Origin: an uncultured Pseudomonadota bacterium
GTDB lineage: Bacteria; Oederibacteriota; Muellerivitia; Muellerivitales; Muellerivitaceae
Direction: 5' to 3'
Length of the DNA: 64,000 bases
Assembly (NCBI GenBank): GCA_963836235.1
Contig: CAWIIP010000001.1
Coordinates: 352,001 to 416,000 of the forward strand
Made by a program: the position numbers and the translations under genes
Shown here: piece after piece, positions 16,482 to 46,964 of the stretch
Layout of the letters: the number at the start of each line of letters is the position of its first letter
How positions within the stretch are numbered: the first letter of the stretch is position 1
Notes under the pieces: model-generated
What the model saw: only the letters and a program-made list of their open reading frames with translations
What the model was told of the DNA's origin: nothing
Database searches by the model: none

Positions 16482-16730
16482 CGGTTTCGCTCCGTTCGAA
16501 TAAAATGACTGCCTGCCGCTATTTTCCACAATAGGCCACCAACTGGTCTATCCACAAAGCATATCTGGCTTCGCTTTCTGCTTCCCCCAAAAATATTTTC
16601 TCCCCATCGACCCAAAAACCCTTGTGGTTATTTGACTTTTAGACCGGTCAAAATTACTGCACTAGACAAAAAATATTTTAAGGGTTTAGCCTGTTTTCCG
16701 TTGGTTAAAACTTGCTCTGAGGAGGCTGTC

Positions 16731-18986: not shown

Positions 18987-18992
18987 CTATTA

Positions 18993-19024
18993 GTTGTCCA
19001 CGACGGGTCCCCGCAAGGAACAAC
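18993..19024 (+). repeat. 32-bp palindromic site, copy 1
   Basis: GTTGTCCACGACGGG-TC-CCCGCAAGGAACAAC. Confidence 0.85.
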
Positions 19025-20056
19025 CCATAGGTGCTATTTTAGCAAAATGTCGAAAAATTATTGTCCCCTCGTAACAAAGAGTCTGGCTGGACTTCCTCCG
19101 AAAAAATAGGCATCTGAAAGGCGAGGCGAACCTAAAGTGTTGAATGTTGGCTCTTTGTTTCAGTACCTTCAAAGCTCGCTAGCCGCGTTGTGATCTTCTC
19201 ATTCCTTCACAGCATGAGTTTTTATTCCGCGTCCTAAAACACCTGCTAATTTCTTTTCATCATCGTTCAGCCGATGGAATAGATCGACCGCCCTTTTATC
19301 ATATCCCGCCCGAACATAGATCTTCCGAATTCCATTGATCGATATCTCTTTCAAACGATCATCCTCGCTGAATAAATTTTTTCGAAGAATATCAAAACAC
19401 CAGTCGAAAACCATGGCGTTATCAGAAATAATTGACATCGCCTTTTCCCGAACGGATTTTCTCGAATCTTTTAACGATCTTGTCACGATTTGTTTTTCCG
19501 AAGAATCTTTCAGATCACCTATTAAATTCATAATGCTCAAAACCGACTCCTGATCGTCGATTCGCGTGTCGAACGCCTTTAATAAAACATTACCTTTGTG
19601 ATCGATCTCCATGTTTTTGAGACACGTCAAATCGTCCTCAAAATCCTTAATCCCAACATAAGGTAAAAGGTATTTTCCCAATTCAACACTCTGACTTTCG
19701 CAAATTTGGTGCATGGCCTCTTTCTTAACCAAATTGACCTCTTTGGAATTTTCAGAACTCAACAAAATATTTTGAAGAGCTTGCATTCTAGGAACCGACT
19801 TACTATTTCGAAGTTCTACCAAAGCTTGCAAATTGTAGAATTTGATAGATGCCATCCATGACAACAATGCGTCCGATGTGCTGTCGTTGATAGATGCCAA
19901 ATATTTCGCAAGCTCATCCAAGTTCGTTTTAGGATCCGCTTTCGTCAAATAAGGAAGGACCCAATCCGTGCCGATCGTCGTTCCTAATTTCCGAACGATG
20001 TCAAAGACAGTCTTTTGGTTTTGTCTCTCAATAACGGCGTCAACTAACCATTTAAG

Positions 20057-21760
20057 CCCGGATTTCCCAGATGGAATTTCCTTTCGAGTATAATAAGACA
20101 ACGTTTGGCCATATAAACAAAGGTTTTTCTTCGTGTTGGGGAACATGAGAGGGGGAAATGCAATGGGTGAAGGCGGAAAAGACGCTCTTCGGGTGGTTTT
20201 TGACCCTGGCCTCAAGTTGGAGTTCCATGGTGCGAAGGTCACTTCCGATGGCGGGTTGATTCCCTATCGCGAACTCGACGAAGCTTTTGGTTTGACTGAC
20301 AGAACAGAAAACATCCTTTGGGATCGGCGGACCGGTAAGAATACGCAACACACGATTACGGCGCTTCTTCGCCAGTCGGTATTCAGCCGCTTGGCCGGTT
20401 ATGAGGATACCAACGACGCAGAACGCCTGAGTGTCGATCCTGCGATGCGGCATGTGATCGGAGGACGGGCCAGGGAAAAACAGGCCGCCTCCACCAGCCA
20501 GATGGGTCGTTTCGAGACGGAGGTCCTCACCCAGTCGAAGAATTTGACCGGCTTAATTGACTTATCGGGCCAATGGATCGATGGAGTCCATGAGAAAAAG
20601 CCCATACAACAGATCATCCTCGACATGGATAGCTCAGTGAGCGAGACCTACGGGGATCAGGAAGGTTCCTTGTACAACGGTTACTTTGGCTGTACCTGTT
20701 ACCATCCCCTGTTTTGCTTCAACCAGTTCGGCGATTTGGAACGGGCTATGTTGCGCAACGGCAATGTGGCCAGTGCCCACGAATGGCGTTCGGTTCTTGA
20801 ACCGGTAGTTGCCCGCTACCGGGGTCTTTCCATCAGCCGGTTTTTCCGGGGTGACGCGGCTTTCGCCCGTCAGGAACTATACGAATACCTAGAAGACGAA
20901 GGATATCTTTACGCGATCCGCCAACCTGCCAATGCCATACTCCAACGGGAAATCGAGCCATTTTTAACCCGTCCCGTGGGCCGCCCCTCCCACAAGCCGG
21001 TTGTCCGGTTTCACAGCTTCCAATACCAAGCCGTCAGCTGGGACAAACCCCGCCGCGTGGTGGCGAAGATCGAACATCACAACGGGGAATTGTTCCCAAA
21101 GGTGGGTTTCATCGTAACGAACATGCGACGACCGGCACCCCAGGTGGTGAAATTCTACAACGGAAGAGGCACGGCTGAGCAGTGGATCAAAGAGGGAAAG
21201 TATGCGATGAAGTGGACAAGACTAAGCTGCCACGACTTCGCGGACAACCAAGTGCGCTTACAACTATTCGCCCTGGCCTACAATCTGGGCAACTTCCTGC
21301 GCCGACTGGCACTGCCAGAACTGGTGAAACATTGGTCGCTAACGACCTTGAGGGAAAAACTCATCAAGATCGGGGCTAATGTCATCCGTCATTCGCGGTA
21401 CGTTATTTTCCAGATGGCGGAGGTGATGGTTTCCCGACGCCTGTTTGCTGAAATCCTCAATCGGATACGGCTACTGGCAATGGTAAGGCCGCGAGCGCCA
21501 GTACTGCGATAACCGCAGGAAGGCATCAAGGCTTCAACCCGAGCGACTACCGCAGGATAGGTGTGCGCTCACAACGAGAATTGGCTTTCCAGAAGGTCAA
21601 TTTCAGCTTTTTTGGGCACAGAAACCTTTTCCTGGGGCTTATTTCAGTGGCCCAGGACGGAAAATTCCGGATTCGGATGGAAGAAGCGGGGGGGGGGCGA
21701 TATAATGAGAAACAAATTACCCGGCAATGTTTTCAGAGAAGGTCATCTGGGAAATTCCGG
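20057..21760 (+). mobile_element. IS1380-family insertion sequence (1704 bp)
   Basis: IRs CCCGGATTTCCCAGATG / CATCTGGGAAATTCCGG; 5-bp TSD TTAAG at 20052-20056 and 21761-21765. Confidence 0.93.
20163..21512 (+). CDS. IS1380-family DDE transposase
   Basis: TSDGG, GYEDTNDAERLSVDP, LDMDSS, RGDAAF, FYNGRGTAEQWIKEGK. Confidence 0.95.
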   Translation: MGEGGKDALRVVFDPGLKLEFHGAKVTSDGGLIPYRELDEAFGLTDRTENILWDRRTGKNTQHTITALLRQSVFSRLAGYEDTNDAERLSVDPAMRHVIGGRAREKQAASTSQMGRFETEVLTQSKNLTGLIDLSGQWIDGVHEKKPIQQIILDMDSSVSETYGDQEGSLYNGYFGCTCYHPLFCFNQFGDLERAMLRNGNVASAHEWRSVLEPVVARYRGLSISRFFRGDAAFARQELYEYLEDEGYLYAIRQPANAILQREIEPFLTRPVGRPSHKPVVRFHSFQYQAVSWDKPRRVVAKIEHHNGELFPKVGFIVTNMRRPAPQVVKFYNGRGTAEQWIKEGKYAMKWTRLSCHDFADNQVRLQLFALAYNLGNFLRRLALPELVKHWSLTTLREKLIKIGANVIRHSRYVIFQMAEVMVSRRLFAEILNRIRLLAMVRPRAPVLR

Positions 21761-23739
21761 TTAAGACTTTTTTCATCTCTTGGTAGTTCAGGTTCGATAT
21801 TAAAAACCGAAGATATCTTTATGACCGCATTCCAAATCGCAAGACGCATCCCTAAATTTTCATCCTCGACATACTGATTCAATTCGTTCAAAGAGTCTTT
21901 ATTACCTACATCCGACAACAGATTCGCGGCATTGATTCGGATTTCATCATCTTTGTTGTTCAAGGTTTTATAAAGAAGTTGCAAATAATTAGCATAGTTA
22001 GACCTCAAATTCATTGAGATCGGACCATAAAAAGAAGAGCCGCCATCTCCTTTAGTTTGGGTTTCGACTCCCGCGGCGATCAAATCGAACGCCTGTCCGA
22101 AGCCGAAAACATCAGGACGGAGCAACACATGAGCAAAGACGAACTTGCGAAAAGCCGACGATCGGTTCCAAAACGGTGTTAAACCATAATAACCGTCTAG
22201 GGCATCGTCTCGAACTCCGGATAAAAACAAATCTTGCAAGACTTGTTTTTTTTGTTTTTCATATTTTTTATCCGCGAACTTGTCCAAACCGGCAATGATC
22301 GTATTTCTTTGGCCGACCCCATCTTTATAGTTTTCGATGAACTTGACGTGGGCCTCGAACGATTTCTCGCCGCCCAAAGTGCTCAAAACGTTCCAGTATT
22401 GATAAGAAAAATGTGGTTCTCCGTTCAAGAAACGCTCGGCCAATTCATCCGCTATACGCGTATTTCCCTCCGTGATCAATATCTTTTCCGCGCTACTCAT
22501 CGAATCATTCGCGTCATTGGTCAAGATTTCCGAAACCGCGTTCTGAAGCGAGGCGTTTTCATTTTTTATTCCCGGCTCCAAAAACTTATCATGGACGACC
22601 ATATCCACTTCCCGAACACGAAAGTAGCCGTCATCGGCGATATATAAATTGCCCCAACGGTCCACGGTGATCCCCGCGGGGGGCCACATCGCGGCGGAGA
22701 TGGCGGGTACACCATCGTTCATATCGCCCTGCAATCCGTTTTTTCCTGCCACCACCGTGATAAGTCCATCAACGTCCACTTTTCGTACGTTGTATTTATA
22801 TTCATCTTGGATATAAAAATTACCGAACCGGTCCGTCGCCAAGTTGATGGGTGACATCGCCGCCATTGTCGCCAGGCCATCATCCCCCGAATATTCAGTA
22901 ACACCCGTACCCGCCACGGTCGTGATAGTTCCATCCTGATCGATTTTCCTGATGCGATGATTTTGGTAGTCAACGAACAAAAGATCCCCGGAAGAATCAA
23001 AAACCATTTTGGCTGGAAGGTTGACCTCCGCGTTGATTGCTGGTCCCCCGTCGCCGCTAAACCCTGCGGTTCCATCCCCGCAAACCGTCGTGATGATCCC
23101 ATTTTGTTCGATCTTGCGGATCCGATTGTTATAGGAGTCGGAAATATATATGTCACCGTTCTGATCCACGGCGATACCGCTCACCCAATTCACCTTTGAT
23201 TGTGTCGCGGGGCCTCCATCACCTGAATAACCTGACACGCCACAACCTGCCACGGTGGAGATTAGGTCATTGGTATCCACTTTTCTCACCAAATAATTTC
23301 TAGCGTCACTGAAATATAGATTATTTTGACCGTCGGTGGTCAATGCACAAGGATTGTTCAAAGGCACCCAGATCGCTGGATTCGTTTGACCAGGACCCGA
23401 AGCCCCACATTTTCCATTTCCCGCTATGGTTCTAATGATTCCATGAGCATCAATTTTTCGAATACGGCAATTATCAAAATCGGAAATATAGATGCTGCCT
23501 GAAGAATCAGAACAAATCCCGATGATTTGACCCAAACCGGCGTTTTTGGCCGGCCCTCCATCGCCCGAATAACCAAAACCCATACCTGCAATGGTTTTTA
23601 TAATCGGTATATGTTTCTTGGGATTGTCCGCCTTCAATTTAATTTCGTCAGCCGCACAAATACTGGCTGAAAATAAAAAACAGAAAATAAAAAAAATCAT
23701 ATAACCTTTCAATTTCAAATAAATCTCCCTTAAATATCA

Positions 23740-23771
23740 TCTATCCACTACGGATCCCCGTCGCGGACAAC
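23740..23771 (+). repeat. 32-bp palindromic site, copy 2
   Basis: TCTATCCACTACGGA-TC-CCCGTCGCGGACAAC. Confidence 0.8.
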
Positions 23772-23816
23772 CTTTTCATCGGTTCACGTATTCTTTATTC
23801 TCTTCGTACCTTTTAA

Positions 23817-24269
23817 TTATTTTCCATCAAACTCTATTTGGGTTGATTTTAACTTTATCATTTTCAAGATTTCCCTGATGGTTTTCCTAGAAAATGGCTT
23901 GCCTATAAAAAGGGGCGCGTAGGGTTTCATTTCTTTGTAATAAATATCCACTCCACGAAGAATACCCTCATGAGGTGTAACCTTTGTAATGTCCGTCCAT
24001 TGAACCCGTCGAACAAATTTTTTGTAGCTAAAAAATGAATATTCGAGCGCCTCATCATCGATCTTAATCTGAGATGTCCAATAAATAAATCCATAGATTA
24101 CCCAGCCAAATCCCCCTAGCAAGAAAAACAAAATAATCAAAAGATAATTTTTTAAATATAACCCGATTACGAAGGGAAAAATAAAATTAGAAATCAATAA
24201 CGCTGAAGAGAAGCACAAAGAACCTATTGAGCTTCGATAAACGGTTAATAATCTTAAATTTTCATTCAT
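23817..24269 (-). CDS. Small membrane protein (2 TM plus PH-like domain), cassette cargo
   Basis: 150 aa from ATG 24269; AT-rich; bounded by sites at 23740 and 24284. Confidence 0.65.
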   Translation of the reverse strand: MNENLRLLTVYRSSIGSLCFSSALLISNFIFPFVIGLYLKNYLLIILFFLLGGFGWVIYGFIYWTSQIKIDDEALEYSFFSYKKFVRRVQWTDITKVTPHEGILRGVDIYYKEMKPYAPLFIGKPFSRKTIREILKMIKLKSTQIEFDGK

Positions 24270-24283
24270 AAAGCCCTTTTCGA

Positions 24284-24315
24284 TTGGTCCACCCAATCTC
24301 CCCGTAAGGAACAAC
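24284..24315 (+). repeat. 32-bp palindromic site, copy 3
   Basis: TTGGTCCACCCAATC-TC-CCCGTAAGGAACAAC. Confidence 0.7.
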
Positions 24316-24351
24316 CTTTAGAAGCTATTTTAGCCAAATGTCGAAAAAAGT

Positions 24352-24383
24352 ATTGTTTACTCCGGGTCCCCGTCGTGGACAGC
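24352..24383 (+). repeat. 32-bp palindromic site, copy 4
   Basis: ATTGTTTACTCCGGG-TC-CCCGTCGTGGACAGC. Confidence 0.8.
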
Positions 24384-24393
24384 AAATTCGTTA

Positions 24394-24993
24394 TTAAACA
24401 ACGGATGGCCGGTTTAAATTAAAAATATCAATCCGCTTTTCTTCAAAGAGGTTTTCCAATTTCTTCGCCCCCTCATTTTCCACCAACCTGTATTCCTTTT
24501 CGGATATCGGGACAACCAATAGCCAAGTTAATTTCATGGTTTCAAGTTGGATTGTCTTATTGAGTTTGGCTGACCCTTCCCATGAGGAAGGTGGAGCGAA
24601 GAACACATGCCGGAGAGTTTTGGAGGCTTTATACATCGATACAACATCAGGGAATACCGCGCCCGGACAACAAAACCATTTTGAATTAATGACCGAAAAC
24701 GCAGCCGTCGCCAATATGTTTTCGAAATCCTTAAAATTCGATCCACAAGCTCCTACCAATTCCACCCTTGTATCAAATTCTTTTCCATCTTTTATTAAAG
24801 GATAATCTGATAAGCCTAACGTCCCATAAGAAGTGACCCCCACCTGCGGCTTATCAATACTTTTAAAAATATTAACGAATGATTTTTCCTTCTCATCCCC
24901 ATGGAGTATCACCCGTGGATCACCACCAAAAGTTTCTACCAGCGTTTTATATATCTCTTTTTGATCTTTGGTCGGCTTATCATTACGTTTCAT
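24394..24993 (-). CDS. Suppressor-of-fused (SUFU) domain protein, immunity-like
   Basis: SYGTLGLS, RVELV and WLLVVPISEKE motifs; bounded by sites at 24352 and 25013. Confidence 0.85.
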   Translation of the reverse strand: MKRNDKPTKDQKEIYKTLVETFGGDPRVILHGDEKEKSFVNIFKSIDKPQVGVTSYGTLGLSDYPLIKDGKEFDTRVELVGACGSNFKDFENILATAAFSVINSKWFCCPGAVFPDVVSMYKASKTLRHVFFAPPSSWEGSAKLNKTIQLETMKLTWLLVVPISEKEYRLVENEGAKKLENLFEEKRIDIFNLNRPSVV

Positions 24994-26276
24994 CTAATAT
25001 TCCTTTTAATTCTTTGTCCACGATGGGTCCCCCTCGTGGACAGGTCAAATTGGTGGGAATTGTTGTTCCTTTTGGTCCAATTGAAAACCATTTTCTCCAA
25101 CCGCCTCAAGTAGGATTCCGAAAACAACATTTTCAGTTCCTTCCGCAGAAAATCCTCCTTCTCTTGGGGAAGCCCCAATAGGAGAGCAGTCCCATAGATC
25201 ACCATTTCAGCCGAAAGACGGTGATAACTGGTGGAAGCCTCAAAGTTGCTTCCTTCCTCATGAAATTGGCTTTCAACCTCCTTTCGAAGCTCGGAAGCCG
25301 AGAACCGAAGCCAATGATCCGTGGTCTTGGATGTAGGCAGATAGGCGGAAGCGAAAAGCAGGCCTACGATATCAGCCAAATAATGATTTGAACGAAGGTC
25401 GGGGTCCCATTCCAGGTGATTATAAATATGGGAGGCGTGCGCGAAAACGCTCTTGGCAAAAGCTTTCTTAAAAGACTCATCCCAAACAACGCCAAAGACA
25501 ACGAATAGATCGTAAGCCAGAAGCCAATTAGCCACTCGAATGGCCACATCCATCGTGCAAGACCAATTCACTCCAAAACGGGGTGGATTGGTGGCTGTAA
25601 AATCCAGTATCTGATTACGAAATTCACTGCGCAAAACCTCTTTTTTCCCTTGGTCTTGGGACAGGCCGAAGGCCAAGGCCAATTGAGGCAGGTGCTGGGC
25701 CCGGGCCAGTTCCCAAGGCACCTTCACATCCACCCCCGGAAGACGGCCATAACGGACGTTCGGGCTCCAAGTTTTTTCATCCCATCGGAACCCCGATTTG
25801 AAATCCAATTGCCAGTCGATAGGACTATAATTTTGTTCGATCAGACCCCACAAACGCCGGGACGTTTCCATGTTTGCCGGATTTATCCTTCCTATTAGCC
25901 ATCGACCCTCCGAATCGGCCGTGACCGGAACCTCAGGAGGAAACCGGTGACCTTCGACTCCTTTGCAATCTAAGCCGTAGGCGACCCGGACCCATCCCGA
26001 ACCCAGCAAATTAAACTCGTGATGGATGAAATGCTCCGTGTGGTCCCGGATAAGTCCGACAGGAAATAGAGCAGGATCGGGAAAAAGGCCCTTTATGATG
26101 GAGACCAGAGGCCCTTCCGGAAAGCGGGTCCGAGGTTTAAAGGTTGAGCTTTGGGCATCCTCCCTCCGTCTCCAGGTTTCCCAATAACGGATTTTAACTT
26201 TCCGGATAGCCTTCCGCACAACTATATGTGGCGGCATGGAGACGGCTCGTTTTATATAATGGAAAAAATTTTTCAA
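24990..26276 (-). pseudogene. Heparinase II/III-family protein, N-terminal part only
   Basis: IDWQLDFKSG, DVKVPWELAR, SNHYLAD, FEASTSYHRL. The C-terminal domain is missing and the ORF reads through a half-site and site 5. Confidence 0.75.
25013..25044 (+). repeat. 32-bp palindromic site, copy 5
   Basis: TTTGTCCACGATGGG-TC-CCCCTCGTGGACAGG. Confidence 0.88.
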
Positions 26277-26288
26277 CCGCGTCTCTCT

Positions 26289-27578
26289 TCAAACTAAGTT
26301 TTTAGGCTGTTTTAACCATTGACTGCTGATCATTCGGTTCTGATGATTTCCCCCAGGTTGGTACCATCGCTCCAAGGCCCAACAGGCCATCCGAGCCGAA
26401 AAAATCCAACCCGTGACATACGTCCCAATCACGTAAAAATCCCACGGGGATACCACTATTCCGTTTGCAGCATAAAATCCAACGCAGACTAGGAAGGGAA
26501 GGATTTCCAAAATCGGAGGTTTGACCCAAAAAACCAGGACCAAACCGATAACCATACAACGAATGAGTTTAACCCGCATATAAAACAATTTAGCCAATGC
26601 CTGGTGAAGAACAAAACCGGGATGTTGGGCCACGATATCCAAAGTCAGCCTTCGCATGACTTCCTCGTATTTCTCCGAATACATGGGCACACTTGGATCA
26701 ATCTTTCGGATAGCCCGGTCACCTGCCCCATCCCCATAAATTGGCTGATAGGGATTGGGAAGATAACCCAGTGCCCCGTAAATGGGGTGCCAAAAGGGAT
26801 GCCGGATGGGCCGAAGGACAAATGAGGGGTTATGGATTCGCAAAAAGGCGTCCCGGTGGTTTGCAAGGATATTGAATTGGATTTGAGGTAAAAAGAACCC
26901 CGTTGCCAAAATGGCCGCCAGTCCCAAACGCCGGCTCCAGGGAATTCCCTCTAAAGACATGAACCAAAAAAAAACGAATAAAAGGACTCCCGTGGAGGAA
27001 TGGATTCTCATCAGTTCCGCGTAGCCCAGGATGATTCCCACGCAGAACAGAACCGCTTGGGCCGCCCACGAACTTTGAAAAGGCCGAACTTTTAAGGACA
27101 CCAGCAGGGGGAGAATGGCCAAGGCTGGGTATCCCTGAATACTAAAGGTGTCGCCTATCGGAACCAACTGACGGAGAGCTGAAAAAACCAACAGAAATGC
27201 CGCGACCCGGGCGGGCCAACTCGGAAAAGCCCTCCAAAAAGACCACAAGGCGATGGCCGTGCAAAAAAAAGGGATCAGGGAAAAAAATAACTTTAGGCTG
27301 AAACTTAAATTCAATCCAAAAATCCGTCCCAAAATCGGCACAAAATAAAATATTCCCGGGTCGTCCAAGGAAATACCGGGAATATAACCGGCGGGAACCC
27401 ATTGGGAATTCACCCAACTGACCAAATCCGGCGCTCCGAGAGAATGGGCGTCAAAACAGCCTTGCAAAAACTGGAGCCGGTTGGGATTGATGTCAAAGTT
27501 CATGGTGAAGAAACGCTGGAGATTGCCAGGAAAAAAAACTTCCAAAAGAGTGTTCATGGTCTCCCTCAATGTATTCAT
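26289..27578 (-). CDS. Multi-pass membrane protein of a polysaccharide locus (GT-C-like)
   Basis: About 10 hydrophobic segments; start overlaps the glycosyltransferase stop (ATGA). Confidence 0.65.
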   Translation of the reverse strand: MNTLRETMNTLLEVFFPGNLQRFFTMNFDINPNRLQFLQGCFDAHSLGAPDLVSWVNSQWVPAGYIPGISLDDPGIFYFVPILGRIFGLNLSFSLKLFFSLIPFFCTAIALWSFWRAFPSWPARVAAFLLVFSALRQLVPIGDTFSIQGYPALAILPLLVSLKVRPFQSSWAAQAVLFCVGIILGYAELMRIHSSTGVLLFVFFWFMSLEGIPWSRRLGLAAILATGFFLPQIQFNILANHRDAFLRIHNPSFVLRPIRHPFWHPIYGALGYLPNPYQPIYGDGAGDRAIRKIDPSVPMYSEKYEEVMRRLTLDIVAQHPGFVLHQALAKLFYMRVKLIRCMVIGLVLVFWVKPPILEILPFLVCVGFYAANGIVVSPWDFYVIGTYVTGWIFSARMACWALERWYQPGGNHQNRMISSQWLKQPKNLV

Positions 27579-28526
27579 GATCTCTCCTTGAGCTTTTCGA
27601 TGATCTTCCGGGTGTGTTCTTTCCAGGTGTACTTGGCTACGCACTCTTCCTGGGCGGCGCGGCCCAGCCGTTCCCGCAGGGGCTGATCCCCGGCCAAAAC
27701 CTTCAGCCCCTCTTTTAAAGAATCCTTATCTCCCGGCTTGACCATCAAGGCCGTTTCATTGGGTTTTAATATTTCCCCGATCTGGTCCAGGTTGGAAGCC
27801 ACAATACCCTTACCCATGGCCATATACTCGAACAACTTGGTGGGTGATCCAAAAAAAGGCGTTCCATCCGGGTTCGGAATATGGGGCGCCACCAGAATAT
27901 CGCAAGCCGCCAGGTAAGCGGGGCCTTCTGCCTGGGGCATGGTACCAGTCAGAACGCAAAGGTCCTTAACATAATACTTCCCGATGATTTCCTTCACCAA
28001 AGGCATGGCGATCCCGTCACCAATCATCAAAAGCCGCGTCTCGTCTCGGAATTTCGTGTCCCCCCGGGCCAGTTCGGCGAAAGCCCGGGCCAGCACTTCC
28101 GCCCCATGCCATTTCCCGAAAGTGCCGATGAAACCCAAAACTTTTTTTCCCTCCAAGCCGTATCTTTTGCGGATGGGGGACCCATCCACTTGCGGCGAAT
28201 ATTTGTCCGTGTCCACCCCGTTGGGATTGACCAGGATTTTTTCCGGATCAATCCCGCGCGCGGTCAGTTCGTCCTTCAGGGGCCTGCTGACCACCACCAC
28301 CAAATCTGCGGCTTGCAGGTTCACCTTCTCGATTTTTTTCGAAAGAGCCTCATACTTTAGGGGTTTTCCCCAGTGGCGGCTCACCCATATTTCGGACCCG
28401 TTATATTCCAGAACGAAGGGAAGTTTCTTCTCGCGGGCCAGCCGGAGCCCCGAATAGTCGTTAAGGCTGTAACGCTGGTAAATGAAGGACAAGGTTTCCT
28501 CCCCGAGGGAGGCCAGGGCCAAAAGG
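27575..28526 (-). pseudogene. GT4 glycosyltransferase, 5'-truncated at the 37-bp repeat
   Basis: FIYQRYS, LEYNGSE, NPNGVD, FFGSPTKLFEYMAMG; no native start or N-terminus. Confidence 0.8.
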
Positions 28527-28895
28527 GTTGCACACTATCCTTTTTGCGACAGGCATGTGCAGGGTCTCACTATCGCGGACAAACAACCATTCAATTCCTT
28601 TAAACCCCATCGAAATGCCATGGGTCAGTTTTACAAACGCTAACCACACCATTAGATTAAGTAAAACTTCAACTGAAATTCCCAATGCCGGTACTTGATC
28701 CATCTTGAGGTGTAACGTCCATAGGAGCGACATACCTAGCAACTTACCAGGCATAAGCCCTAATGCACCAACTCCCCCAAACACGAGCCCGATAACCGAA
28801 TCGTATGGCAAATGAAACAAGTGACTTGGGCACCAACAAAAAAGTTCAGCGACCACCTGCCAAACAATAAATACAGTCCAAAACTTTCGGTTCAT
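28461..28895 (-). CDS. Small membrane protein, cassette cargo; C-terminus runs across the 37-bp repeat
   Basis: MNRKFWTVFIVWQ..., 3-4 TM helices; ends with LHMPVAKRIVCN, which is encoded by the repeat. Confidence 0.55.
   Translation of the reverse strand: MNRKFWTVFIVWQVVAELFCWCPSHLFHLPYDSVIGLVFGGVGALGLMPGKLLGMSLLWTLHLKMDQVPALGISVEVLLNLMVWLAFVKLTHGISMGFKGIEWLFVRDSETLHMPVAKRIVCNPFGPGLPRGGNLVLHLPALQP
28527..28563 (+). repeat. 37-bp hairpin repeat, copy 1
   Basis: GTTGCACACTATCCTTTTTGCGACAGGCATGTGCAGG, identical to 53292-53328. Confidence 0.9.
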
Positions 28896-28935
28896 ATAGT
28901 GCCTTTCAATAATTTGGCTCCCTACGGTAAGCAAC

Positions 28936-28967
28936 CTTGTCCACGAAGGGTCCCCGTCGTGGACAAC
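28936..28967 (+). repeat. 32-bp palindromic site, copy 6 (degenerate tandem copy at 28904-28935)
   Basis: CTTGTCCACGAAGGG-TC-CCCGTCGTGGACAAC. Confidence 0.9.
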
Positions 28968-28983
28968 AAAAGTTTTTTGATGT

Positions 28984-29364
28984 TTACAACTTGTGAAAAG
29001 CCTTCAACTCCCCGTAATAATCCACATAAGCCAGCACCGCCATCAACCCATAGTACCCAACGATCAGCCACCTAGTTTTTTTGAGGTTATTTTTTAACAG
29101 AAGTTCCCAGGTCATTGCAAAAATAAAAGTTTGAACGGGAAAAAAGAAAGGAATCCAATTTTGGGTAAATCCAAAGAACAGCATTGAAAATGGAAAATGC
29201 AAATAGAGGTTCAAGTAAAAGATCATATACCGGCCCCAAAAGGAAGTTCCCATATCAATCAACTTATTTTCCACAACGATAAAGGAAAGGGTTATGTATA
29301 AAAAATCCAACCCCACCCAAAAAATGATATTCTTCCAATTTATTTTTCGAAGTTTTTTAATCAC
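28984..29364 (-). CDS. Small membrane protein, cassette cargo
   Basis: 126 aa, 3-4 TM helices, AT-rich; bounded by sites at 28936 and 29360. Confidence 0.65.
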   Translation of the reverse strand: MIKKLRKINWKNIIFWVGLDFLYITLSFIVVENKLIDMGTSFWGRYMIFYLNLYLHFPFSMLFFGFTQNWIPFFFPVQTFIFAMTWELLLKNNLKKTRWLIVGYYGLMAVLAYVDYYGELKAFHKL

Positions 29365-29391
29365 GAGAACCAGCTCCCCGTTGCGGACTAA
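29360..29391 (+). repeat. 32-bp site, copy 7 (right arm conserved)
   Basis: ATCACGAGAACCAGC-TC-CCCGTTGCGGACTAA; its minus-strand GGAG is positioned as an RBS for GTG 29364. Confidence 0.6.
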
Positions 29392-29450
29392 TTAATTAGC
29401 TTTTCATATACTCAAAAAATTGGTCTCAGGCCGACATTATCCATTTCGGG

Positions 29451-29482
29451 CTTGTCCACGATGGGTCCCCGTCGTGGACAAC
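29451..29482 (+). repeat. 32-bp palindromic site, copy 8
   Basis: CTTGTCCACGATGGG-TC-CCCGTCGTGGACAAC; preceded by an extra left arm ATTATCCATTTCGGG (29436-29450). Confidence 0.9.
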
Positions 29483-29490
29483 TTCAAACA

Positions 29491-30771
29491 TCACTTAACA
29501 ACATAAGAAAAACGGCGTTCCGTTTGGAAATGGAACACGACCTTTCCATCGAATTCATCCAAAAGCCGATCGGACTTCTGGCCGGTCGCCGGTTTCTCAA
29601 CCGTCTCCTGGAGTTCCCAAAGTTTCTCGCCTTTCAGGTTCAATAGGACAGCCGATCTCCCCGCGATCGTTTTTTCCTTGTTCGGCGATTTCAGGAAGCT
29701 GCCCAAAGCGATCATGTCGCCATCCTCATAAGCCCGCCCCTCAACGACCCAAAGGGGGTCCATATCTTTTGGAATAGGGACCTCCAAGATCGTCTTTCCA
29801 TCCTCCGCACGTAAATAAACCACCTTCCCTCGAGCCTTGTCGTAAAAAAGGAGGATGGAATCGTTCTTCACGGCACCTATGAAGAAGGGGTTTGTCCCAA
29901 CCCCGGTTGCTTGGCCGGGAGACCCTTCGATACTCAGCCAGCCTTGGTCCGGCACATTGGCGGCTTCATAGGTGAACAGGATCTTGCCTTCATTGCTGAT
30001 ACCCCACCATTGGTCATTTTTAAGCTTGTAATTACTGGAGCCTGTCAAAAGGCGCCTCCCATCCCCGCTGATCCAATCGAACTCCGCGGGCGCCGGGAAA
30101 GTCTTATGGTCCTTCGGATCATCGGTGGAAACCAGATGGATGGTCACGGGGCCGCGCCACTCGGTCATATAAGCCAGGTATTTCCCATTCTCGGAGAGCA
30201 TCTTGTTCATGACGCCGTCCGCCTCAAAATAGGTCTTTCCCGTGGCATCGCGAAGGGCGAGGCTTTGAAGGGTCCCGTTACGGCCGATGCAATAGGCGAT
30301 GGTGCCCGAGGGCTCGATCATTTTCAAAAAAATGATCGGGTCCGGCCCGCCCGATTCGCTCCAAACTTCCTTGTCACCGTCAAAAAAGGACACCGACGAA
30401 CTCCCCGAGGTGAGCCGACAATTGGTCGTGGACTCCATCCAAAAGGCGTAACGTCTGGGCCTTGAGAAATGGACATAGGCCGACTGGTAGCACCAATCGT
30501 TGTCCCCCTCCGGTTTCGGGTTTTCCACGTTTTTGACCAGACAGTCATCCTCAAGAAAGAACGGTTTCGACTGTCGAATAATGTAACTTTCCTTCCCCAC
30601 TCGCACCGTCACCTCCTTGGCATTCGGCAACACTTCGGTCACTTTCAGAGCCGGAATGTAATGGAAACTAAGTTTATCCAAGGTAGGATCAAGGGCCTGG
30701 GCAAAACTTAATGTCGTTAATAAATAGGTCCAACCAAAATAAAGAAATAGCAATCTCAAATGAAAAGTCAT
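29491..30771 (-). CDS. Secreted hypothetical protein (possible beta-propeller), cassette cargo
   Basis: Signal peptide (SFA); LSENGKYLAY and ISGDGRRLL propeller-like blades; bounded by sites at 29451 and 30830. Confidence 0.65.
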   Translation of the reverse strand: MTFHLRLLFLYFGWTYLLTTLSFAQALDPTLDKLSFHYIPALKVTEVLPNAKEVTVRVGKESYIIRQSKPFFLEDDCLVKNVENPKPEGDNDWCYQSAYVHFSRPRRYAFWMESTTNCRLTSGSSSVSFFDGDKEVWSESGGPDPIIFLKMIEPSGTIAYCIGRNGTLQSLALRDATGKTYFEADGVMNKMLSENGKYLAYMTEWRGPVTIHLVSTDDPKDHKTFPAPAEFDWISGDGRRLLTGSSNYKLKNDQWWGISNEGKILFTYEAANVPDQGWLSIEGSPGQATGVGTNPFFIGAVKNDSILLFYDKARGKVVYLRAEDGKTILEVPIPKDMDPLWVVEGRAYEDGDMIALGSFLKSPNKEKTIAGRSAVLLNLKGEKLWELQETVEKPATGQKSDRLLDEFDGKVVFHFQTERRFSYVVK

Positions 30772-30829
30772 CAAAACACCCCCTCGTTCCGCCACGAAAA
30801 AAGATGCCAGACCACCCTGACCCTTTCGT

Positions 30830-30861
30830 CTTGTCTACTACGGGTCCCCAGTGTGGACAAC
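30830..30861 (+). repeat. 32-bp palindromic site, copy 9
   Basis: CTTGTCTACTACGGG-TC-CCCAGTGTGGACAAC. Confidence 0.85.
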
Positions 30862-30900
30862 TTCCTAAACTTGGCCGGTTATAAGTTTATTCGACAACCA

Positions 30901-31794
30901 TCATTTCCCCTTGCCGTTCAAGGCCTCGAATCCAGAGATGACGTCGAAAAGTTCCTCATCTATTCCGCTTTGGCGCAACCGATGGAAATTAACGTTGAGT
31001 TCCTCCAACAAATCGTCGATGTTTTTATCCGCGCGTTGCATCGCCGCCAGGCGGCTGGCGTTCTCGCTGGCTAGGGATTCGGCGCAGGCCCGAAAGAGGG
31101 AAACGAAAAGGTATCCGTTCAGGAACGCCCGTAAAGTCTCGGCGCCCACGCCCATGACCTCGGGCAGGAATCCCGTCGGCCAGGCGAGGCCGGCAAGCTT
31201 GCGTCTCCAGTTTTCGTCCAGTGGCAGAAGCCGCTGGGTCACGGGCGCGTAAACGGCCCCGGATGTCGGGCGATTGTAGAAAAGGTGGAGTTCGCTGATT
31301 TCACCCTTGTCCCGGCGCGCCTCGCTTTCCATGAGGATCTGCCCGACGAGCGGTGTTATGGCCTTGACGGAATTCGGCACGGTTAATACCCCCATCAACG
31401 GCAGGCCCGCTTCCGTAAGCCGCGCGTAAACACGTTCCCCGACAGCCCAGACCTCGGCTTTGGATGGAAATGCCGAAAGGGTTTTTACGGCGAAATCCGC
31501 AACCACTTCGTTAAATTGACCCACCAGGCCCTGGTCCGAGCCGAAAACGACCGCCCCAATGCCTCCCACTTTTTGTTTCCCGTTCCTTACCTCGACATCG
31601 GAAACCGGCCCGCTTGCCCTGAAGCAAACACCCAAACCCAGTTCAACGGCATGATAGTAGTCGGCCAGGGCTAGAACCGAATTCTCGTATTGCCCGATAC
31701 TGGACGCGGCCACGGCCTTCATTGTTCGGACGACGGATTGAAGATCCCCGGCACCGGCGATCTTTCGACGAAGGCTGGCGGTTGTGTTACTCAC
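30901..31794 (-). CDS. atpG: N-ATPase gamma subunit
   Basis: [34 protein letters not shown]. Confidence 0.93.
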
Positions 31795-33481
31795 GATTTA
31801 ACCTCGGGTCCGGGCCTTCTTTTGCCTCCGTTTTGTTTTCCGGCTGGATCAAAGGTTCGGGTTTCGGCTTTATCTCCGTCTTGGCTTCCGGCTTGGACCC
31901 CGACCGGGGCTTGACTGGGGTTTCCGTATTGACTGCCGTCTTTGGCTCGGATTTGGCTTGGAAGGGGGCAAGCGAATCGCGGGCGGTTTGGATAATCATT
32001 TCACGGTCCTTGCCGCTCAATTTTTCGGAGGACTCCAATCTCCCTCGAACCTCCCCCGGCAGTTTCGCCGAGGCTTCAAGCAGGGATCTCTCGGCGTCCT
32101 TCATTCGGTCCAATGGGATTAGGTCGAAGAGTTTCTCCCCCAACGCCAACAGGACGGCAATCTGCGCGGGAACCGACACCGGGGCCCCTTCCGGCTGTTT
32201 CAGGCAGGATCGTATCCGTCGTCCATGCTCAATGGCTTTGTGGGTGTTTTCATCCAGGCTTGCGCCGAACCTGGAAAAAGTCTCAAGTTCCTCGAATTGC
32301 GCATAGGCAAGCTTGAGGTCTCCCGCCACCACCCGGTAGGCCTCGCGTTGCGCCTTTCCCCCAACCCTTGAAACGGATTTCCCCACATCGACCGCGGGCA
32401 GTACTCCCAATTCAAACAGCGAGGGCGAGAGGTAAATCTGCCCATCCGTTATGGAAATCAGGTTCGTGGGAATATAGGCGGAAATATCCTGGGCCTGGGT
32501 CTCGATGATGGGGAGCGCGGTAAGGGAACCTCCCCCGAGTTCCTTTCCCAAATGCGTCGTCCGTTCGAGCATCCGCGAATGGATATAAAAGATGTCGCCC
32601 GGAAAGGCTTCCCGGCCTGGCGGACGGTTCAGCAGGAGGGAGAGTTCGCGGTAGGCGCGCGCGTGATGGGTAAGGTCATCGTAAACGATCAAAACATCCC
32701 GGCCCGATTCCATGAAGGACTCCGCGATGCTGGTGGCGGCGTAGGGGGCGAGGTAAGTGAGGCCTGGAGGATCGTTACCCTCCGTCACGACGACCACGGT
32801 GTAATCCATCGCGCCTTTTTCCCGCAAGGTCGCCACCGCCTTCGCGACGGCGGATGCCCGCTGGCCGATGAAACAATAAACGCACAATACATTCTGGTCC
32901 CGCTGGTTGAGGATGGTATCGATGGCGATGGCTGTCTTCCCCGTCCGCCGGTCGCCGAGGATCAACTCCCTTTGGCCCCGCCCGATGGGGATAAGCGCGT
33001 CGATGACCTTGAGGCCAGTCTGGAGCGGGACCGTGACTGGTGCCCGGTCCATGATGGGCGCGGCGGGGCGTTCGACGGGCAGGCGCCCGCTGGAGGCCAC
33101 CGGTCCGTTTTCATCAAGGGGGCGTCCCAGCGGATCAATGACCCTGCCCAGCAATCCCTCGCCCACGGCCACATCCATGACCCGGCCCGTCCGCCGGACT
33201 TCATCCCCCGCCCGCAAATGCCAGTATTCCCCGAGCAGGACTACGCCGATTTCGTTCTCGTCGACGTTAAAGGCGATTCCGAGCACGTCGCCCGGAAACT
33301 CGATCAATTCCTCAAATCCCACTCCCGGAAGACCCGAAACCTTGGCAATACCGGTTCCGACACTCATGATCGTTCCAACCTCTCGTGGCATCAGTTGAGG
33401 CTTGGTCGCTTCCAGCGTTTGGCCTATTCCGGCAAACGCGCTTTCAAAAACACTTTCAAGGTTTTCGGTTTCCATGTTCAT
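31787..33481 (-). CDS. atpA: N-ATPase alpha subunit
   Basis: [27 protein letters not shown]; K/P/E-rich C-terminal tail. Confidence 0.96.
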
Positions 33482-34623
33482 GCGCTCTTTGTTCCCGGAC
33501 TGACTTTTTCCGGCTTGGGTTCCACTTTGACTTCCGGCCCAGGCTCGGCTTTAACTTCTGTTTTTGGTCCATTTTTTATTTCAGGTTTAGGGGTTACTTC
33601 GGCTTTAGGCTTAAGCGCTACCTCTTCTTCAGGTTTGATCTCGGCTTTGGCCTCGGGCTTTGGCGGTGCTTTGAGCTCAACTTTAGGTTCGACTTTAGCT
33701 TCCGGCTTAGGTTCGGCTTTGATACCCGTCTTCCGAACCTCCCTCTCCGCCTGACTCCAGTCCTGGATCGCCGAATCGTTTTTGCGACCATGCATCTCGT
33801 ACAGTTCGTAAGCGCGCTTGGCGATCCGTGGCGTCAAATCGGACGATGCCTTGCTCGCGGTTTTATCCTTCTCTTTCAGGATCTCCTCAACACCCTTTTC
33901 CATCGACACCAGGTAATCCTCGATGCTCCATGCAAGCTTTTGTCCATTTGTAGTGAGTTCAATACCGTTGATCAATTCCGGGGCGGCTTCGAAACGAACG
34001 CGAATCTCGGATGAAAAAGTCTCGTTCAGCGCCTTTTGGATGGAAGCTCGCTGCTCCATGGGTAAGTCAAAAGCGCTTCGAACCAGCGCGGGTTCAGGAG
34101 CCGTCCGAAGGGCCCCGGCAAGGTCGGCTTTCGCCTGGCCTTCCATCTTCCGCAAACGGTTGATAAACAGGTCAGCCATTCGCTCCTCCAAACCCGTACC
34201 AGCGAGATCAGATAGCGTCTTTCGCGCGATGGAGAATACTTCCTTGCCCGTCCGACGCCGGATGGCCTGGTGCAGGTTATGTTCTTCCGCCTTCAGGGCT
34301 TCCAGCCGTTTATAACTCAAATCCTCGGCGGCCCTTCGCGCCTCCACGAGAAGCCGTTGGCGTTCAGCCTGGGCCTCGACCGTTACCTGGTTCAATAGCA
34401 TGGCTCGTTGCCGATCAAATTCCTCATTTTTGCGCTTGAAATCGTCGCCCTCCTTTTGGGCTTCGGACTTCTTCTTGTCCGCCTCCGCGAGTTCGGCGGC
34501 GATCCTCTTTTCCCGCTCATTGATGGCGTTGAGGATGGGCTTATATAAAAAGCGCTTCATCAGCCACACCAAAATGAGGAAGTTGAGCGCCTGGGCGATG
34601 ACAGTGAACCAATCGATGAGCAT
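33478..34623 (-). CDS. atpF: N-ATPase b/delta subunit with DUF2934-like insert and KPE tail
   Basis: [29 protein letters not shown], coiled coil, delta-like domain, [10 protein letters not shown]...DWSQAERE. Confidence 0.92.
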
Positions 34624-34627
34624 GGGT

Positions 34628-34909
34628 TTACTTTCCCGCCACTTGGGCAATGGCGTGGTTCCAGAAGGGGTTGGCGAAGATGAGAATCATCGAGACCACG
34701 AAACAATAGATGGCAGTGGACTCGATCATCGCCAGTCCCACGAACAAAGTCCGGGTGATGGTGGCGGAGGCATCCGGCTGTTGGGCCAGTGAAGTCAAGG
34801 CCGTCGCGACCGCCCTCCCTTCCGCCAGGGCGGGCCCCATCGTCCCGAAACCGGTGGTTATCCCCGCGATGACAATCGATGCCACCGCGATAATCGTTAA
34901 GCTGTCCAT
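34628..34909 (-). CDS. atpE: N-ATPase c subunit (Na+-binding motif)
   Basis: PALAEG, AQQP loop, ESTAIY. Confidence 0.96.
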   Translation of the reverse strand: MDSLTIIAVASIVIAGITTGFGTMGPALAEGRAVATALTSLAQQPDASATITRTLFVGLAMIESTAIYCFVVSMILIFANPFWNHAIAQVAGK

Positions 34910-34941
34910 GCGTCCTCCTTTTATTTACTATGTTTTTTTCT

Positions 34942-35739
34942 TCAATGATTCAAAACGGGCAAATGATCGGCCACGACCTCCTTTTCGGTTTCGGTCCCAG
35001 GTTTCGGGTCGGCTTTTATCCCGGCCTTCGCCCCACCCTTGCCTTCCGGTTTTGAATCCGTTTCAGGCTTGGGCTTTCGAACCCTTGTCGCCGCCGCGAT
35101 ATAAACCCCTGCCAGGATGCTGAAGATATAGGCCTGAACCATTCCGGTGAGAAGGCCGAGGACCATCATGATGATCGGGAAAACAAACGGCGTGATCGTG
35201 AGCAGGATGGCTATAATCATCGCCCCGCTCATCATGTTGCCGAACAAACGGACAGCCAGGGCCAAGGTGCGCGAAAGTTCGCTGATGATGTTGAAAGGCA
35301 GCATGATGAAGGTGGGCTTCATGTAGGACTTGAGGTAGTTTCCCAACCCTTGATCCTCGATTCCGAAGAAAGGCACGGCCACGAACACGCACAAGGCGAG
35401 CGCGGCTGTGGTCGAAAGCGATCCGGTGGGGGGCTCGTAGCCGGGGATGACCGTGCAAAGGCTGGCTGCGGCGACAAAAAGAAAAAGGGTGCCAAGGAAG
35501 CCAATATATTTCTCGGGCCGGCTCAAACCCACCTCTTGGATTTGCTTTTCGATGGCGGTAACGACAATTTCAAGCAGGTTTTGCCACCGGGAACGGTCCG
35601 GCCCCGTCGAAAGCTTATGGGTGAGGATCTTGGAACCCACCGTCAGGATAAACATGAGCCCCCAAGTGAAAACAATGGTTCCGTTGAGTTTGAGAAAACC
35701 ATGATGCCAAAAGATCATCTCATCTGGAGTAAGGCGCAT
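34942..35739 (-). CDS. atpB: N-ATPase a subunit
   Basis: SRTLALAVRLFGNM, QAYIF. Confidence 0.95.
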   Translation of the reverse strand: MRLTPDEMIFWHHGFLKLNGTIVFTWGLMFILTVGSKILTHKLSTGPDRSRWQNLLEIVVTAIEKQIQEVGLSRPEKYIGFLGTLFLFVAAASLCTVIPGYEPPTGSLSTTAALALCVFVAVPFFGIEDQGLGNYLKSYMKPTFIMLPFNIISELSRTLALAVRLFGNMMSGAMIIAILLTITPFVFPIIMMVLGLLTGMVQAYIFSILAGVYIAAATRVRKPKPETDSKPEGKGGAKAGIKADPKPGTETEKEVVADHLPVLNH

Positions 35740-36040
35740 GGCCGACCCCCTGTGCCAGGATTTTCGGTTTTTCCACCCCACCCGTAAGCCGCGTCACGAT
35801 ATAGCGGCCAATTAAAAACCCCAGCAGGCATACCAGGAGCCTCTCCCAATGTCCGTGAGCGATGAAATAGAAGCCACCCAAGGTGATCCCCATCCTTAAC
35901 AACAGGCTGCCGAGGAACCAAAGGGCGGGCCGTTTGATCGAAACCCCTTTCTGAACCGTCCACCAGAGGCCGCCAAAAAATATTCCGCCTATCAAGACGC
36001 CACCCGCCAAAGCCATCCCCATTTTTAAAAAATCAGTCAT
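35720..36040 (-). CDS. atpR: N-ATPase subunit AtpR
   Basis: FFGGLWWTV...SLLLR; position in the atpDCQRBEFAG order. Confidence 0.85.
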   Translation of the reverse strand: MTDFLKMGMALAGGVLIGGIFFGGLWWTVQKGVSIKRPALWFLGSLLLRMGITLGGFYFIAHGHWERLLVCLLGFLIGRYIVTRLTGGVEKPKILAQGVGHAPYSR

Positions 36041-36354
36041 TTTGGTCCTCCCCCATTTCCTTGTCCTGTTGGGCCACCCAATGCCAGGCGTTCATGCATC
36101 CAATCGCGAGTCCCGCCGCCATGAGGGCCAACGTCCAGGAATGCCCGCCCGGATGCCGTTTGTCCAACCATAGGCCAAGTGCCGCGCCAAGGAGGGTCGG
36201 CACCACCACCGACCAGCCGATTAGCCCCATCATTCCCAAACCAAACCAGACGCCCTTGACCGGATTCCGTTGGGCCCTGATCTTGCGTACCGCCTTCTCG
36301 CCGACCTCCCGGCTGAACCCTGTCGTATCTTTCCCCTGTTCGGTTTCGGGTTTT

Positions 36355-36362
<8 letters not shown>
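36033..36362 (-). CDS. atpQ: N-ATPase subunit AtpQ (AtpZ/AtpI family)
   Basis: GLGMMGLIGWSVVVPTLLGAALGLWLD. Confidence 0.85.
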
Positions 36363-39409
<3,047 letters not shown>

Positions 39410-39413
<4 letters not shown>

Positions 39414-41779: not shown

Positions 41780-41795
41780 TTTAAATCCCCCTTTT

Positions 41796-43623: not shown

Positions 43624-43764
43624 AAGGGTCCCAGGGCTTCCGTTGTTTTACCGGGAGCGTTTAGTTTTGAAGGTTCATTCGTCATTTTCATCCCCATTTT
43701 AAATTCCCCTTCCATGCACTCGGAGACACCGGAGACGTAATCGCCCAACTCGCGCACGGGTTTT

Positions 43765-46335: not shown

Positions 46336-46964
46336 AACGGAATCCCTTGCTCACGAGGGGACGTTGCCGAAGCATCACCGACGATTTCCTGTGCTTCCTC
46401 GAGAATTCGGCCCAAATGGGATTGGCCCTAGATATTCTCCGTTTAGATCTCATAAATTTTTCTATCTTCAACAGACGGGCGGCGCATTTTTATAATACTT
46501 TTTCATCAAATCAAAGTTTTTGATATGACTCCGGTCAGTTTCATCGTGAATTTTTATCGCATTCCTGTATTTAAACTGGGGATTTAAAAGGCCGAGTTGG
46601 TTGAACCAAAGTGAAATTGAAAACTTGGTTCGGATTCCGTTAAGACATTCGCCGGGGCCGGGGATCGTTTTCGCTAGTCCATCGATCAGGATTATTCTAA
46701 TGTTTCCAACTCATAAAACCTCGAGTCGGAGGTTTAATTTGTAAACTTTTCTTCCAATTGACCACACCAAGTATTTGGATCTTCCATATCAAAATGATCT
46801 ATCGGATTCTCATTTTGATTCGTCCCTAAATTTACAAATCCCGAAATAAACAAATAAAAACGGGTTAAAAATAAATTTTTAAACGGCTTAGTTCTTGCCA
46901 TTAGTCAAAGTTAACCATAAATACCATTTCGGTTTGAGTTCAAATAGAGAGGAAGGAAATACCA

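Follow-up and report, generated by a model that had tools for sequence, protein, structure and literature searches.

Direct 32-bp repeats that bound putative mobile gene cassettes in candidate division FCPU426, with a short serine recombinase as candidate enzyme

The DNA analysed here, hereafter the window, is 64,000 nucleotides long and corresponds to C1:352001-416000 of the 3.97-Mb, 5-contig genome G000; G001, G003, G018, G022 and similar handles denote relatives, and L402-L407 metagenome contigs. The window holds a family of 32-nt repeats, including the 32-mer at 28936-28967, which reads as an earlier note on this DNA gave it. A repeat search recovered 11 clear copies, in register and all in the same orientation on the + strand, and a position matrix added two degenerate copies scoring 17.4 (24284-24315) and 20.8 (47198-47229) compared to 33.8-48.0 for the clear ones; the count of 14 copies plus one degenerate copy in the earlier note is thus replaced by 11 plus two. 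A 30-mer with up to three mismatches has six matches in the window and none in 100 shuffles, and the core plus one arm has 22 matches (3.59 +/- 2.08 expected; 0/100 shuffles reach 22). As both counts lie far above those of the shuffles, the repeat is not a product of chance. The genes in the array part of the window are on the - strand, and every site lies between two of them. Based on comparative sequence analysis, we suggest with moderate confidence that the repeats are double-stranded site-specific recombination sites bounding mobile cassettes and that a short serine recombinase is the enzyme most likely to act on them.

We describe the site on the gene strand, on which the copy at 28936-28967 reads GTTGTCCACGACGGGGACCCTTCGTGGACAAG; this copy is located between a 157-aa open reading frame (ORF; 28461-28934) and a 126-aa cassette (28984-29364), both on the - strand. 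All other sites are likewise on the - strand in this convention. The site at 18993-19024, the downstream-most of the group spanning 18993-30861, has a degenerate gene-strand left arm of the GGAACA type. It is followed by sites from the repeat search at 23740-23771, 24352-24383, 25013-25044 and 29451-29482, with the degenerate copy at 24284-24315 among them, and by the site at 30830-30861, which forms the 3' end of a block at 30841-47200 and at which homology with the same-genus genome G001 ends after site position 21. Beyond this block, the degenerate copy at 47198-47229 is followed by a site at 47374-47405, which adjoins a recombinase vestige, has a degenerate arm on the vestige side and forms the same junction in G018:C2 and in metagenome contig L407, and by sites at 49323-49354, 49557-49588 and 51313-51344, the cassette upstream of the last being interrupted by an insertion of the IS256 type. 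Next to the two sites with the GGAACA arm lies a 50-nt repeat (19008-19057 and 24299-24348; 88% identity).

To describe the anatomy of the site we pooled 183 copies from the whole G000 genome and from regions of three relatives. Three blocks are at least 90% conserved: TGTCCAC at positions 3-9, GGGGACCC at positions 13-20 and TGGACA at positions 25-30; conservation stops 14-15 bp from the site centre. The central dinucleotide is GA on the gene strand, i.e. TC on the + strand, in 176/183 sites, and TC is present in 11/11 clear window copies, in agreement with the conserved TC reported earlier. The idea that only this dinucleotide is invariant does not hold, since each position of the whole central 8 bp is kept in 164-180 of the 183 sites. 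Similarly, TC is the only asymmetric part of the consensus, as had been proposed, but not of the actual copies: positions 9-12 read CGAC in 109/183 sites whereas the mirror positions 21-24 read GTCG in only 58/183, without compensating changes, and the four inner arm pairs are all complementary in only 53/183. The argument from site geometry to a serine recombinase is correspondingly weak: read as 12-8-12 with an asymmetric 8-bp spacer, the site fits a tyrosine recombinase equally well. The folding energy of the consensus is -10.7 to -11.2 kcal/mol, and single-strand folds of six window copies have energies between -11.2 and -3.0 kcal/mol, two of the six doing no better than shuffles. No intrinsic terminator (GC-rich hairpin plus T run) was flagged at any of the seven sites in 18000-32000, and a scan of the window against Rfam at gathering thresholds returned no family. 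That the sequence blocks are conserved and the pairing is not suggests selection on sequence rather than on hairpin structure, and the presence of an 18-nt block of left arm plus core, identical letter for letter across at least 16 genera, argues for recognition by a protein.

The sites bound units of one or a few genes. In the best array, C2b (C2:1192091-1202848), each interval holds a single ORF or a small gene pair, with 0-82 nt between the stop codon and the site and 10-163 nt from the site to the next start codon; the same layout is found in genomes of three other genera. Co-oriented arrays in which each ORF is followed by a site are the layout by which integron arrays are defined, and the cassette content is typical of integron cassettes, comprising a zinc-ribbon protein, an outer membrane protein barrel, two HAD hydrolases, GNAT, an NHL propeller, a BrnT/RHH pair and a LOG-like protein as well as PIN, MazF, an antidote-type helix-turn-helix (HTH) protein (HigA-like), a CAAX protease and RibD_C. 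In the window, the site-bounded units at 23817-30795 (- strand) hold a 165-aa ORF without Pfam family, a SUFU-like protein of 199 aa, a 126-aa ORF and a 434-aa ORF, and a four-gene polysaccharide-type unit at 24990-28934 (- strand) encodes heparinase II/III-N, a 451-aa ORF without family, GT1 and a 157-aa ORF; window units also hold a sigma-54 activator and a CRP-type regulator. Just upstream of arrays there are ordinary chromosomal genes (DUF7948/SBBP, GH116, oxidoreductase).

Several units are shared between arrays or genomes, and their ends fall within the site. A 1276-bp segment comprising a 377-aa NHL gene and the site on either side of it occurs with 100% identity in arrays C2b and C4a, which are on two contigs, and a toxin-antitoxin unit is 91% identical between arrays C2b and C5b. 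In the window, a 12.2-kb multi-gene unit at 30841-43056 (- strand), including an ATP synthase gamma gene at 30901-31794, is 98.9% identical to G001 C9:114033-126248 as compared to 85-93% for other segments shared by G000 and G001 (in fetched regions, with a search floor of 85%), and has different neighbours in G001. The left arm of the site at 30830 carries a distinctive variant common to both genomes, and identity ends after position 21. From these alignments, the 30841-43056 segment seems to be a unit of operon size that was exchanged recently and has one of its ends exactly within the site. All informative pairs together bound the crossover between 13|14 and 20|21, an interval that includes the GA at positions 16-17. 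The crossover position in related genomes, by which the earlier note proposed to judge the core, is thereby narrowed to positions 14-20 with GA included, although one junction, in array C5b, lies at 20|21. The breakpoints fit exchange in the core, and a 2-bp and a 6-8-bp overlap are not separable by them. An apparent case of an empty and an occupied locus in G000 and G001 was rejected as a single-cassette event: the occupied locus is a 17.5-kb insert (G001 C6:253915-271391) with an eight-site array beside a tRNA-like gene end, and its G000 counterpart (C2:538439-538561) is empty and has no site, which indicates that arrays can ride in larger islands.

G000 encodes two serine recombinases, of which the short one is linked to the site. 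The full-length protein (513 aa from the first Met) has the Resolvase, Recombinase and Zn_ribbon_recom domains; the short one (278 aa; C2:163827-164663) has only PF00239 (79.3 bits) and PF07508 (52.7 bits). The short forms are about 275-281 aa long and 77-79% identical to one another, and all end 12-16 residues past KLWEKVQ, just before the zinc ribbon (CxxC region) of the 513-aa paralogue; PF13408, the zinc ribbon, is absent from three short forms and present in this paralogue. R18, S20, D89, R90 and R93, which we take to be equivalent to R8, S10, D67, R68 and R71 of gamma-delta, are invariant in a 26-sequence alignment. A structure model of the short form (mean predicted local distance difference test score 76.4) has serine integrases as its best matches (9dxd_A, E 5.7e-14; 4kis_A, 131 columns with a root-mean-square deviation of 3.0).

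The linkage between gene and site is consistent. We considered as assessable those short genes with at least 75% identity to the G000 gene and with downstream sequence present; two more contigs end too early. In 8/8 assessable cases (G000, G001, G022, L402, L403, L405, L406 and L407) there is a site 6-110 nt past the stop codon, and seven of the genes are convergent with the cassettes. The short gene is located at the downstream end of some arrays: in G000 a distance of 32 nt separates its stop codon from the last site of C2a, with the gene convergent with the cassettes of this array, in G022 the gap is 6 nt, and in G001 a degenerate site lies ~36 nt past the stop. By contrast, none of five full-length homologues (510-570 aa) in relatives has a site within 1.5 kb by the site matrix, and none of 73 metagenome loci at 55-61% identity has the exact site pattern within up to 3 kb. 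The window itself retains a 3' vestige of the gene at 47287-47361 (+ strand), 24 codons reading YKPIIPQKLWEKTQKVMGKHFKLR before the stop codon, which is convergent with the cassettes and ends 12 nt before the site at 47374; the statement that these 64 kb lack a serine recombinase ORF therefore stands for an intact gene but overlooked this remnant. Further decayed copies lie beside sites in G018:C2 and G018:C41 (an RD-only ORF and a 30-residue tail; RD, recombinase domain). There is no further cargo beside the short gene in G000 or G022, and the next genes on its other side differ.

The site is widespread in the family. A matrix scan of G000 yields about 70-80 sites (72-80), grouped in ~10 arrays apart from a few isolated copies; within an array all sites point the same way, and their orientation follows GC skew with genes and sites on the leading strand. 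The 18-nt left-arm-plus-core motif (at most two mismatches) occurs in 23/24 other family genomes and in the sole sister-family genome, with 1-141 matches per genome compared to 0-2 for a reversed-pattern control. An exact-match scan with one genome per species gave at least 110 stretches; among the matches listed, most are titled 'candidate division FCPU426', as are most of the records that carry multiple copies of the site. Of 25 loci titled otherwise, 11 have a full site and 14 have none; the Streptomyces, Geodermatophilus, Kocuria and Myxococcus loci are all among these 14, and we therefore read the Actinomycetota and Myxococcus loci as chance 18-mers. Viral contigs gave no exact match to the 18-mer. 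Among the public sequencing runs listed as matches, five are of soil-metagenome DNA, with small shares, and none is of RNA; in four of these soil runs, contigs show the bare site amid different contexts and break off at sites.

Combining the architecture of the arrays, the breakpoints and the gene-site linkage, we tentatively suggest that FCPU426 bacteria possess a serine-recombinase counterpart of the integron, in which a large serine recombinase lacking its C-terminal module would act in both directions on identical 32-bp sites and genes and operons would be captured, stored and shuffled at many loci. In this model, (i) a cassette would consist of a right half-site, a short leader, an ORF, gene pair or operon, 0-80 nt and the left half of the next site, (ii) the enzyme would be a derivative of large serine recombinases that keeps the catalytic domain and the RD and is devoid of the zinc ribbon and coiled-coil, and (iii) one dimer would bind per site, with the catalytic domains placed on GGGGACCC and the RD reading the conserved outer block at a distance of 8-14 bp from the centre (TGTCCAC/TGGACA). 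Upon synapsis of two sites, four strands would be cut at the central GA/TC to give 2-nt overhangs, and the half-sites would rotate and be rejoined. A cassette would leave as a circle with one site, and the reverse reaction would insert the circle at any site. Recombination is proposed to be limited to direct repeats, since the GA dinucleotide is not self-complementary.

The dimensions of the short protein are in keeping with this model. In the LI integrase-attP structure, positions 9-11 are contacted by the RD helix, and the motif of the zinc ribbon spans positions 16-24 in attP and 11-19 in attB (PMC3783163). A protein without the zinc-ribbon module should therefore need only ~14-15 bp per half-site, which is where conservation of the site ends, and should not distinguish attP from attB. 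Moreover, the coiled-coil inserted in the zinc ribbon is reported to set the direction of serine integrases (PMC5499577, PMC3783163). It is this element that renders phage integrases one-way, and an enzyme lacking it could recombine identical sites in both directions. The proposal in the earlier note of a serine recombinase acting in trans on direct repeats, with excision and integration as the outcome, is partly supported and remains the best-supported reading, owing to gene linkage (8/8 against 0/5 and 0/73) rather than to site geometry, even though most site-bearing genomes lack the gene.

That scarcity is one of several observations that weigh against a short serine recombinase as the enzyme of these sites. 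Only 8/24 family genomes have any match to the short recombinase (E <= 1e-5), the short gene was seen intact in no genome but G000, G001 and G022, and the site-rich genomes G005, G010, G021, G023 and G016 gave no match to it; since the genomes are draft bins, absence of the gene carries little weight, but G021 consists of no more than 20 contigs. The arms of the 183 sites have a strong left/right asymmetry without compensation that a symmetric dimer would not predict. Array C5b passes into unrelated DNA after the left arm and all of GGGGACCC, so that the junction is at 20|21 and not at GA, and in L405 the site is 110 nt from the short gene and in the opposite orientation. No joints were found in the soil-metagenome contigs, a neutral result. 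Another point that fits less well is a group II intron of ~1.96 kb (RF02005 and RF00029), which encodes a 436-aa reverse transcriptase with RVT_1 and GIIM and no other Pfam family and is present in G000 in two 99.8%-identical copies (C2:1476543-1478501 and C1:223030-224988): both are inside 32-bp sites, just after GGGGACCC, and sense to the cassettes. For group IIC introns, insertion downstream of palindromes has been reported, the attC lineage being inserted antisense (PMC3001079). Finally, the recombinase itself could be a parasite that merely targets the sites.

In this last scenario, the short recombinase would belong to a selfish element for which the sites serve as a landing pad, and the cassettes would be moved otherwise or no longer. 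IS1111 elements and group IIC introns use attC in this way, and the position of the gene, always at one array end, its often decayed copies, its patchy distribution and the targeting of the sites by the group II intron in 2/2 copies are all compatible with such a role. Nevertheless, we consider it unlikely: no further cargo accompanies the gene in G000 or G022, the combination of an enzyme lacking the zinc ribbon with a site of matching reach is what a recombinase joining like with like needs, and a landing pad would still imply that the enzyme recognises the site. Alternatively, the repeats may be gene-end hairpins, either REP-like (repetitive extragenic palindromic) or regulatory, between which exchange occurs by homologous or microhomology recombination over 20-30 identical nt. 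Their location at gene 3' ends, co-oriented with genes and GC skew, the folding energy of the consensus, the breakpoints in the longest identical stretch, which homology would also give, and their use by a group II intron of a kind reported to insert after palindromes (PMC3001079) would all be accounted for. The inner arm, however, is fully paired in only 53/183 sites, 2/6 window copies fold like shuffles, 0/7 sites are terminator-like and the linkage of recombinase and site is left unexplained; the transposases associated with such hairpins do not help either, as none of the three Y1-HUH/RAYT-type (Y1) genes has a site within ~6 kb and PF01797 was not found in G018, G001 or G023, a set that includes the most site-rich genome. 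Hairpins exchanged by homology are therefore an improbable account of the arrays. Other candidates were rejected on their own evidence: the genome has no match to the IS110 family, and the ends of the insertion sequence (IS) elements in the arrays are unlike the site arms, which argues against a miniature inverted-repeat transposable element derived from them. Two such IS insertions lie in the window. One at 20050-21762 (+ strand), inside the array region, encodes a 459-aa DDE_Tnp_1_4 transposase and has several near-identical copies elsewhere in the genome; the other, of the IS256/Mutator type, at 51436-52796 (- strand), cuts a cassette and is 100% identical to C2:913860-915220. Beside the site at 18993 is the gene for a 784-aa protein (16632-18986, + strand) with a weak ParB_N match (26.0 bits; cut-off 26.3), which belongs to a patchy multi-copy family with nine matches in G000 and 12 in two relatives. 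As only 1/30 homologous loci has a site, namely the window's own, this protein was set aside as a candidate enzyme.

The reading of the repeats as lox- or dif-like sites, with 12-bp arms around the 8-bp asymmetric spacer GGGGACCC, for a tyrosine recombinase encoded elsewhere, either a Xer-like protein or a tRNA-island integrase, is in our view rather unlikely. Identical sites at every junction are what Cre-, Xer- and IntI-type reactions regenerate, the conservation of all eight central positions is what a matched overlap region would need, and the C5b half-site junction at 20|21 would suit a cut between arm and spacer. Unequal arms are also usual for Xer sites. G000 encodes eight tyrosine recombinases including six paralogues of ~370 aa (57-70% identical; C2:508534, C2:1185603, C2:1373833, C4:195984, C4:244730 and C5:272292) and one divergent Xer-like protein, which scores 168.7 bits against the XerC cut-off of 335 and, when aligned to XerD and XerA-type chains, is colinear with them and has no large insertion. 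Orthologues of the Xer-like protein (56-79% identity) are present in 23/24 family genomes and in one genome of the same order, a range that matches the clade of the site; outside this clade identity is 27-35% and most genomes give two Xer-type matches. The Xer-like gene (C1:328834-329949), however, has flanking repeats of its own that are unlike the site, and 0/30 of its loci have the 32-bp site within 1.5 kb. These repeats are inverted copies of a 46-nt AT-rich motif (C1:328664-328709, +; C1:330939-330984, -); with one more at C1:307585-307630 (+), G000 as a whole contains three copies, and conservation of the motif extends across genera, with an exact 10-mer core in 17/25 orthologous loci. 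The motif may serve as a dif-type site in a lineage with a single Xer protein, or it may belong to a Xer module that is invertible or mobile; a search with three short patterns gave no canonical dif-like motif. Genome position also separates the two, for in the near-closed genome G003 the Xer-like gene is ~5-70 kb before the skew switch and the only array ~450-500 kb from it, which speaks against the 32-bp site as the chromosomal dif. G000 also has a local skew switch, located 6-16 kb ahead of the first site in the window, in a stretch of mixed gene orientation.

The ~370-aa paralogues fare no better as enzymes of the site. tRNA genes lie beside 4/6 of them and in 5/7 G000 integrase loci scanned (none in L006 and L009), and no tyrosine-recombinase locus scanned, in G000 or relatives, has a site within 1.5 kb. 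One ~370-aa integrase orthologue is found beside tRNA-Ser genes, 88-90% identical across six genomes of other genera. As for integron integrases, the best match to TIGR02249 in the whole genome is 40.9 bits compared to a cut-off of 265. This absence of IntI, together with a site of 32 bp that is conserved in sequence rather than in structure and the lack of an Rfam match in the window, makes it very improbable that the repeats are classical attC sites served by IntI, despite the integron-like array layout and gene content; attC sites are 57-141 bp long, are conserved in structure and have R''/L''...L'/R' boxes with RYYYAAC...GTTRRRY ends.

If the short serine recombinase is taken as the enzyme, the system combines traits of several known ones. 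With integrons it shares co-oriented, promoter-poor single-gene cassettes with a recombination site at the end of each, cargo that includes toxin-antitoxin and acetyltransferase genes, the presence of group II introns and IS elements in the arrays, and many arrays without a recombinase gene nearby, the last resembling the integrase-less attC clusters termed CALINs (Cury et al. 2016, PMC4889954). It differs from them in having a 32-bp site conserved in sequence and not in fold, no IntI, a candidate enzyme that is a serine and not a tyrosine recombinase and whose gene is downstream of and convergent with the cassettes rather than upstream and divergent as for IntI, and ~10 arrays per genome. Thus, the arrays functionally resemble sedentary chromosomal integrons and are not integrons by membership, as they have neither IntI nor attC. 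With large serine recombinases (phiC31, Bxb1, A118/LI, SPbeta and Ccr of the staphylococcal cassette chromosome), which also provide its best fold matches, the candidate shares PF00239 and PF07508, a pseudo-palindromic site around a central dinucleotide and a gene adjoining its site; unlike them it is about half as long, lacks the zinc ribbon and coiled-coil, and is associated with a site of 32 rather than 40-50 bp that occurs in many tandem units and is the same at all junctions instead of being split into attP, attB, attL and attR. Inverted half-sites around an asymmetric 2-bp centre that sets polarity are also found in res site I and in gix/hix. Such sites of small serine recombinases, however, are 26-28 bp long as opposed to 32 bp, are recognised through a C-terminal HTH, depend on an enhancer or on accessory sites and support resolution or inversion only. 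The pdif sites of Acinetobacter resemble dif (11-6-11) and flank modules in alternating orientation, whereas the FCPU426 sites are all direct repeats and are unlike the AT-rich motif beside the Xer-like gene. What is common to the FCPU426 arrays and to pdif modules and Xer-exploiting elements (PMC6449649, PMC13141974) is the organization in accessory-gene modules with short bounding sites and an enzyme encoded elsewhere. In a search of the main texts of a full-text library, we found no description of such arrays.

Known platforms for gene cassettes are almost only integrons, which rely on one family of tyrosine recombinases and on folded single-stranded attC sites. If our suggestion is correct, the FCPU426 arrays would represent a second, independently evolved platform based on a serine recombinase and a plain 32-bp duplex site, and cassette capture would be a convergent trait. 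A naturally bidirectional serine recombinase of about 275-281 aa with a short defined site would also be of interest as a tool and would bear on how the coiled-coil module imposes direction on phage integrases. For the organisms themselves, such a platform would account for part of the accessory genome in a phylum of soil and peat that is widespread but uncultured.

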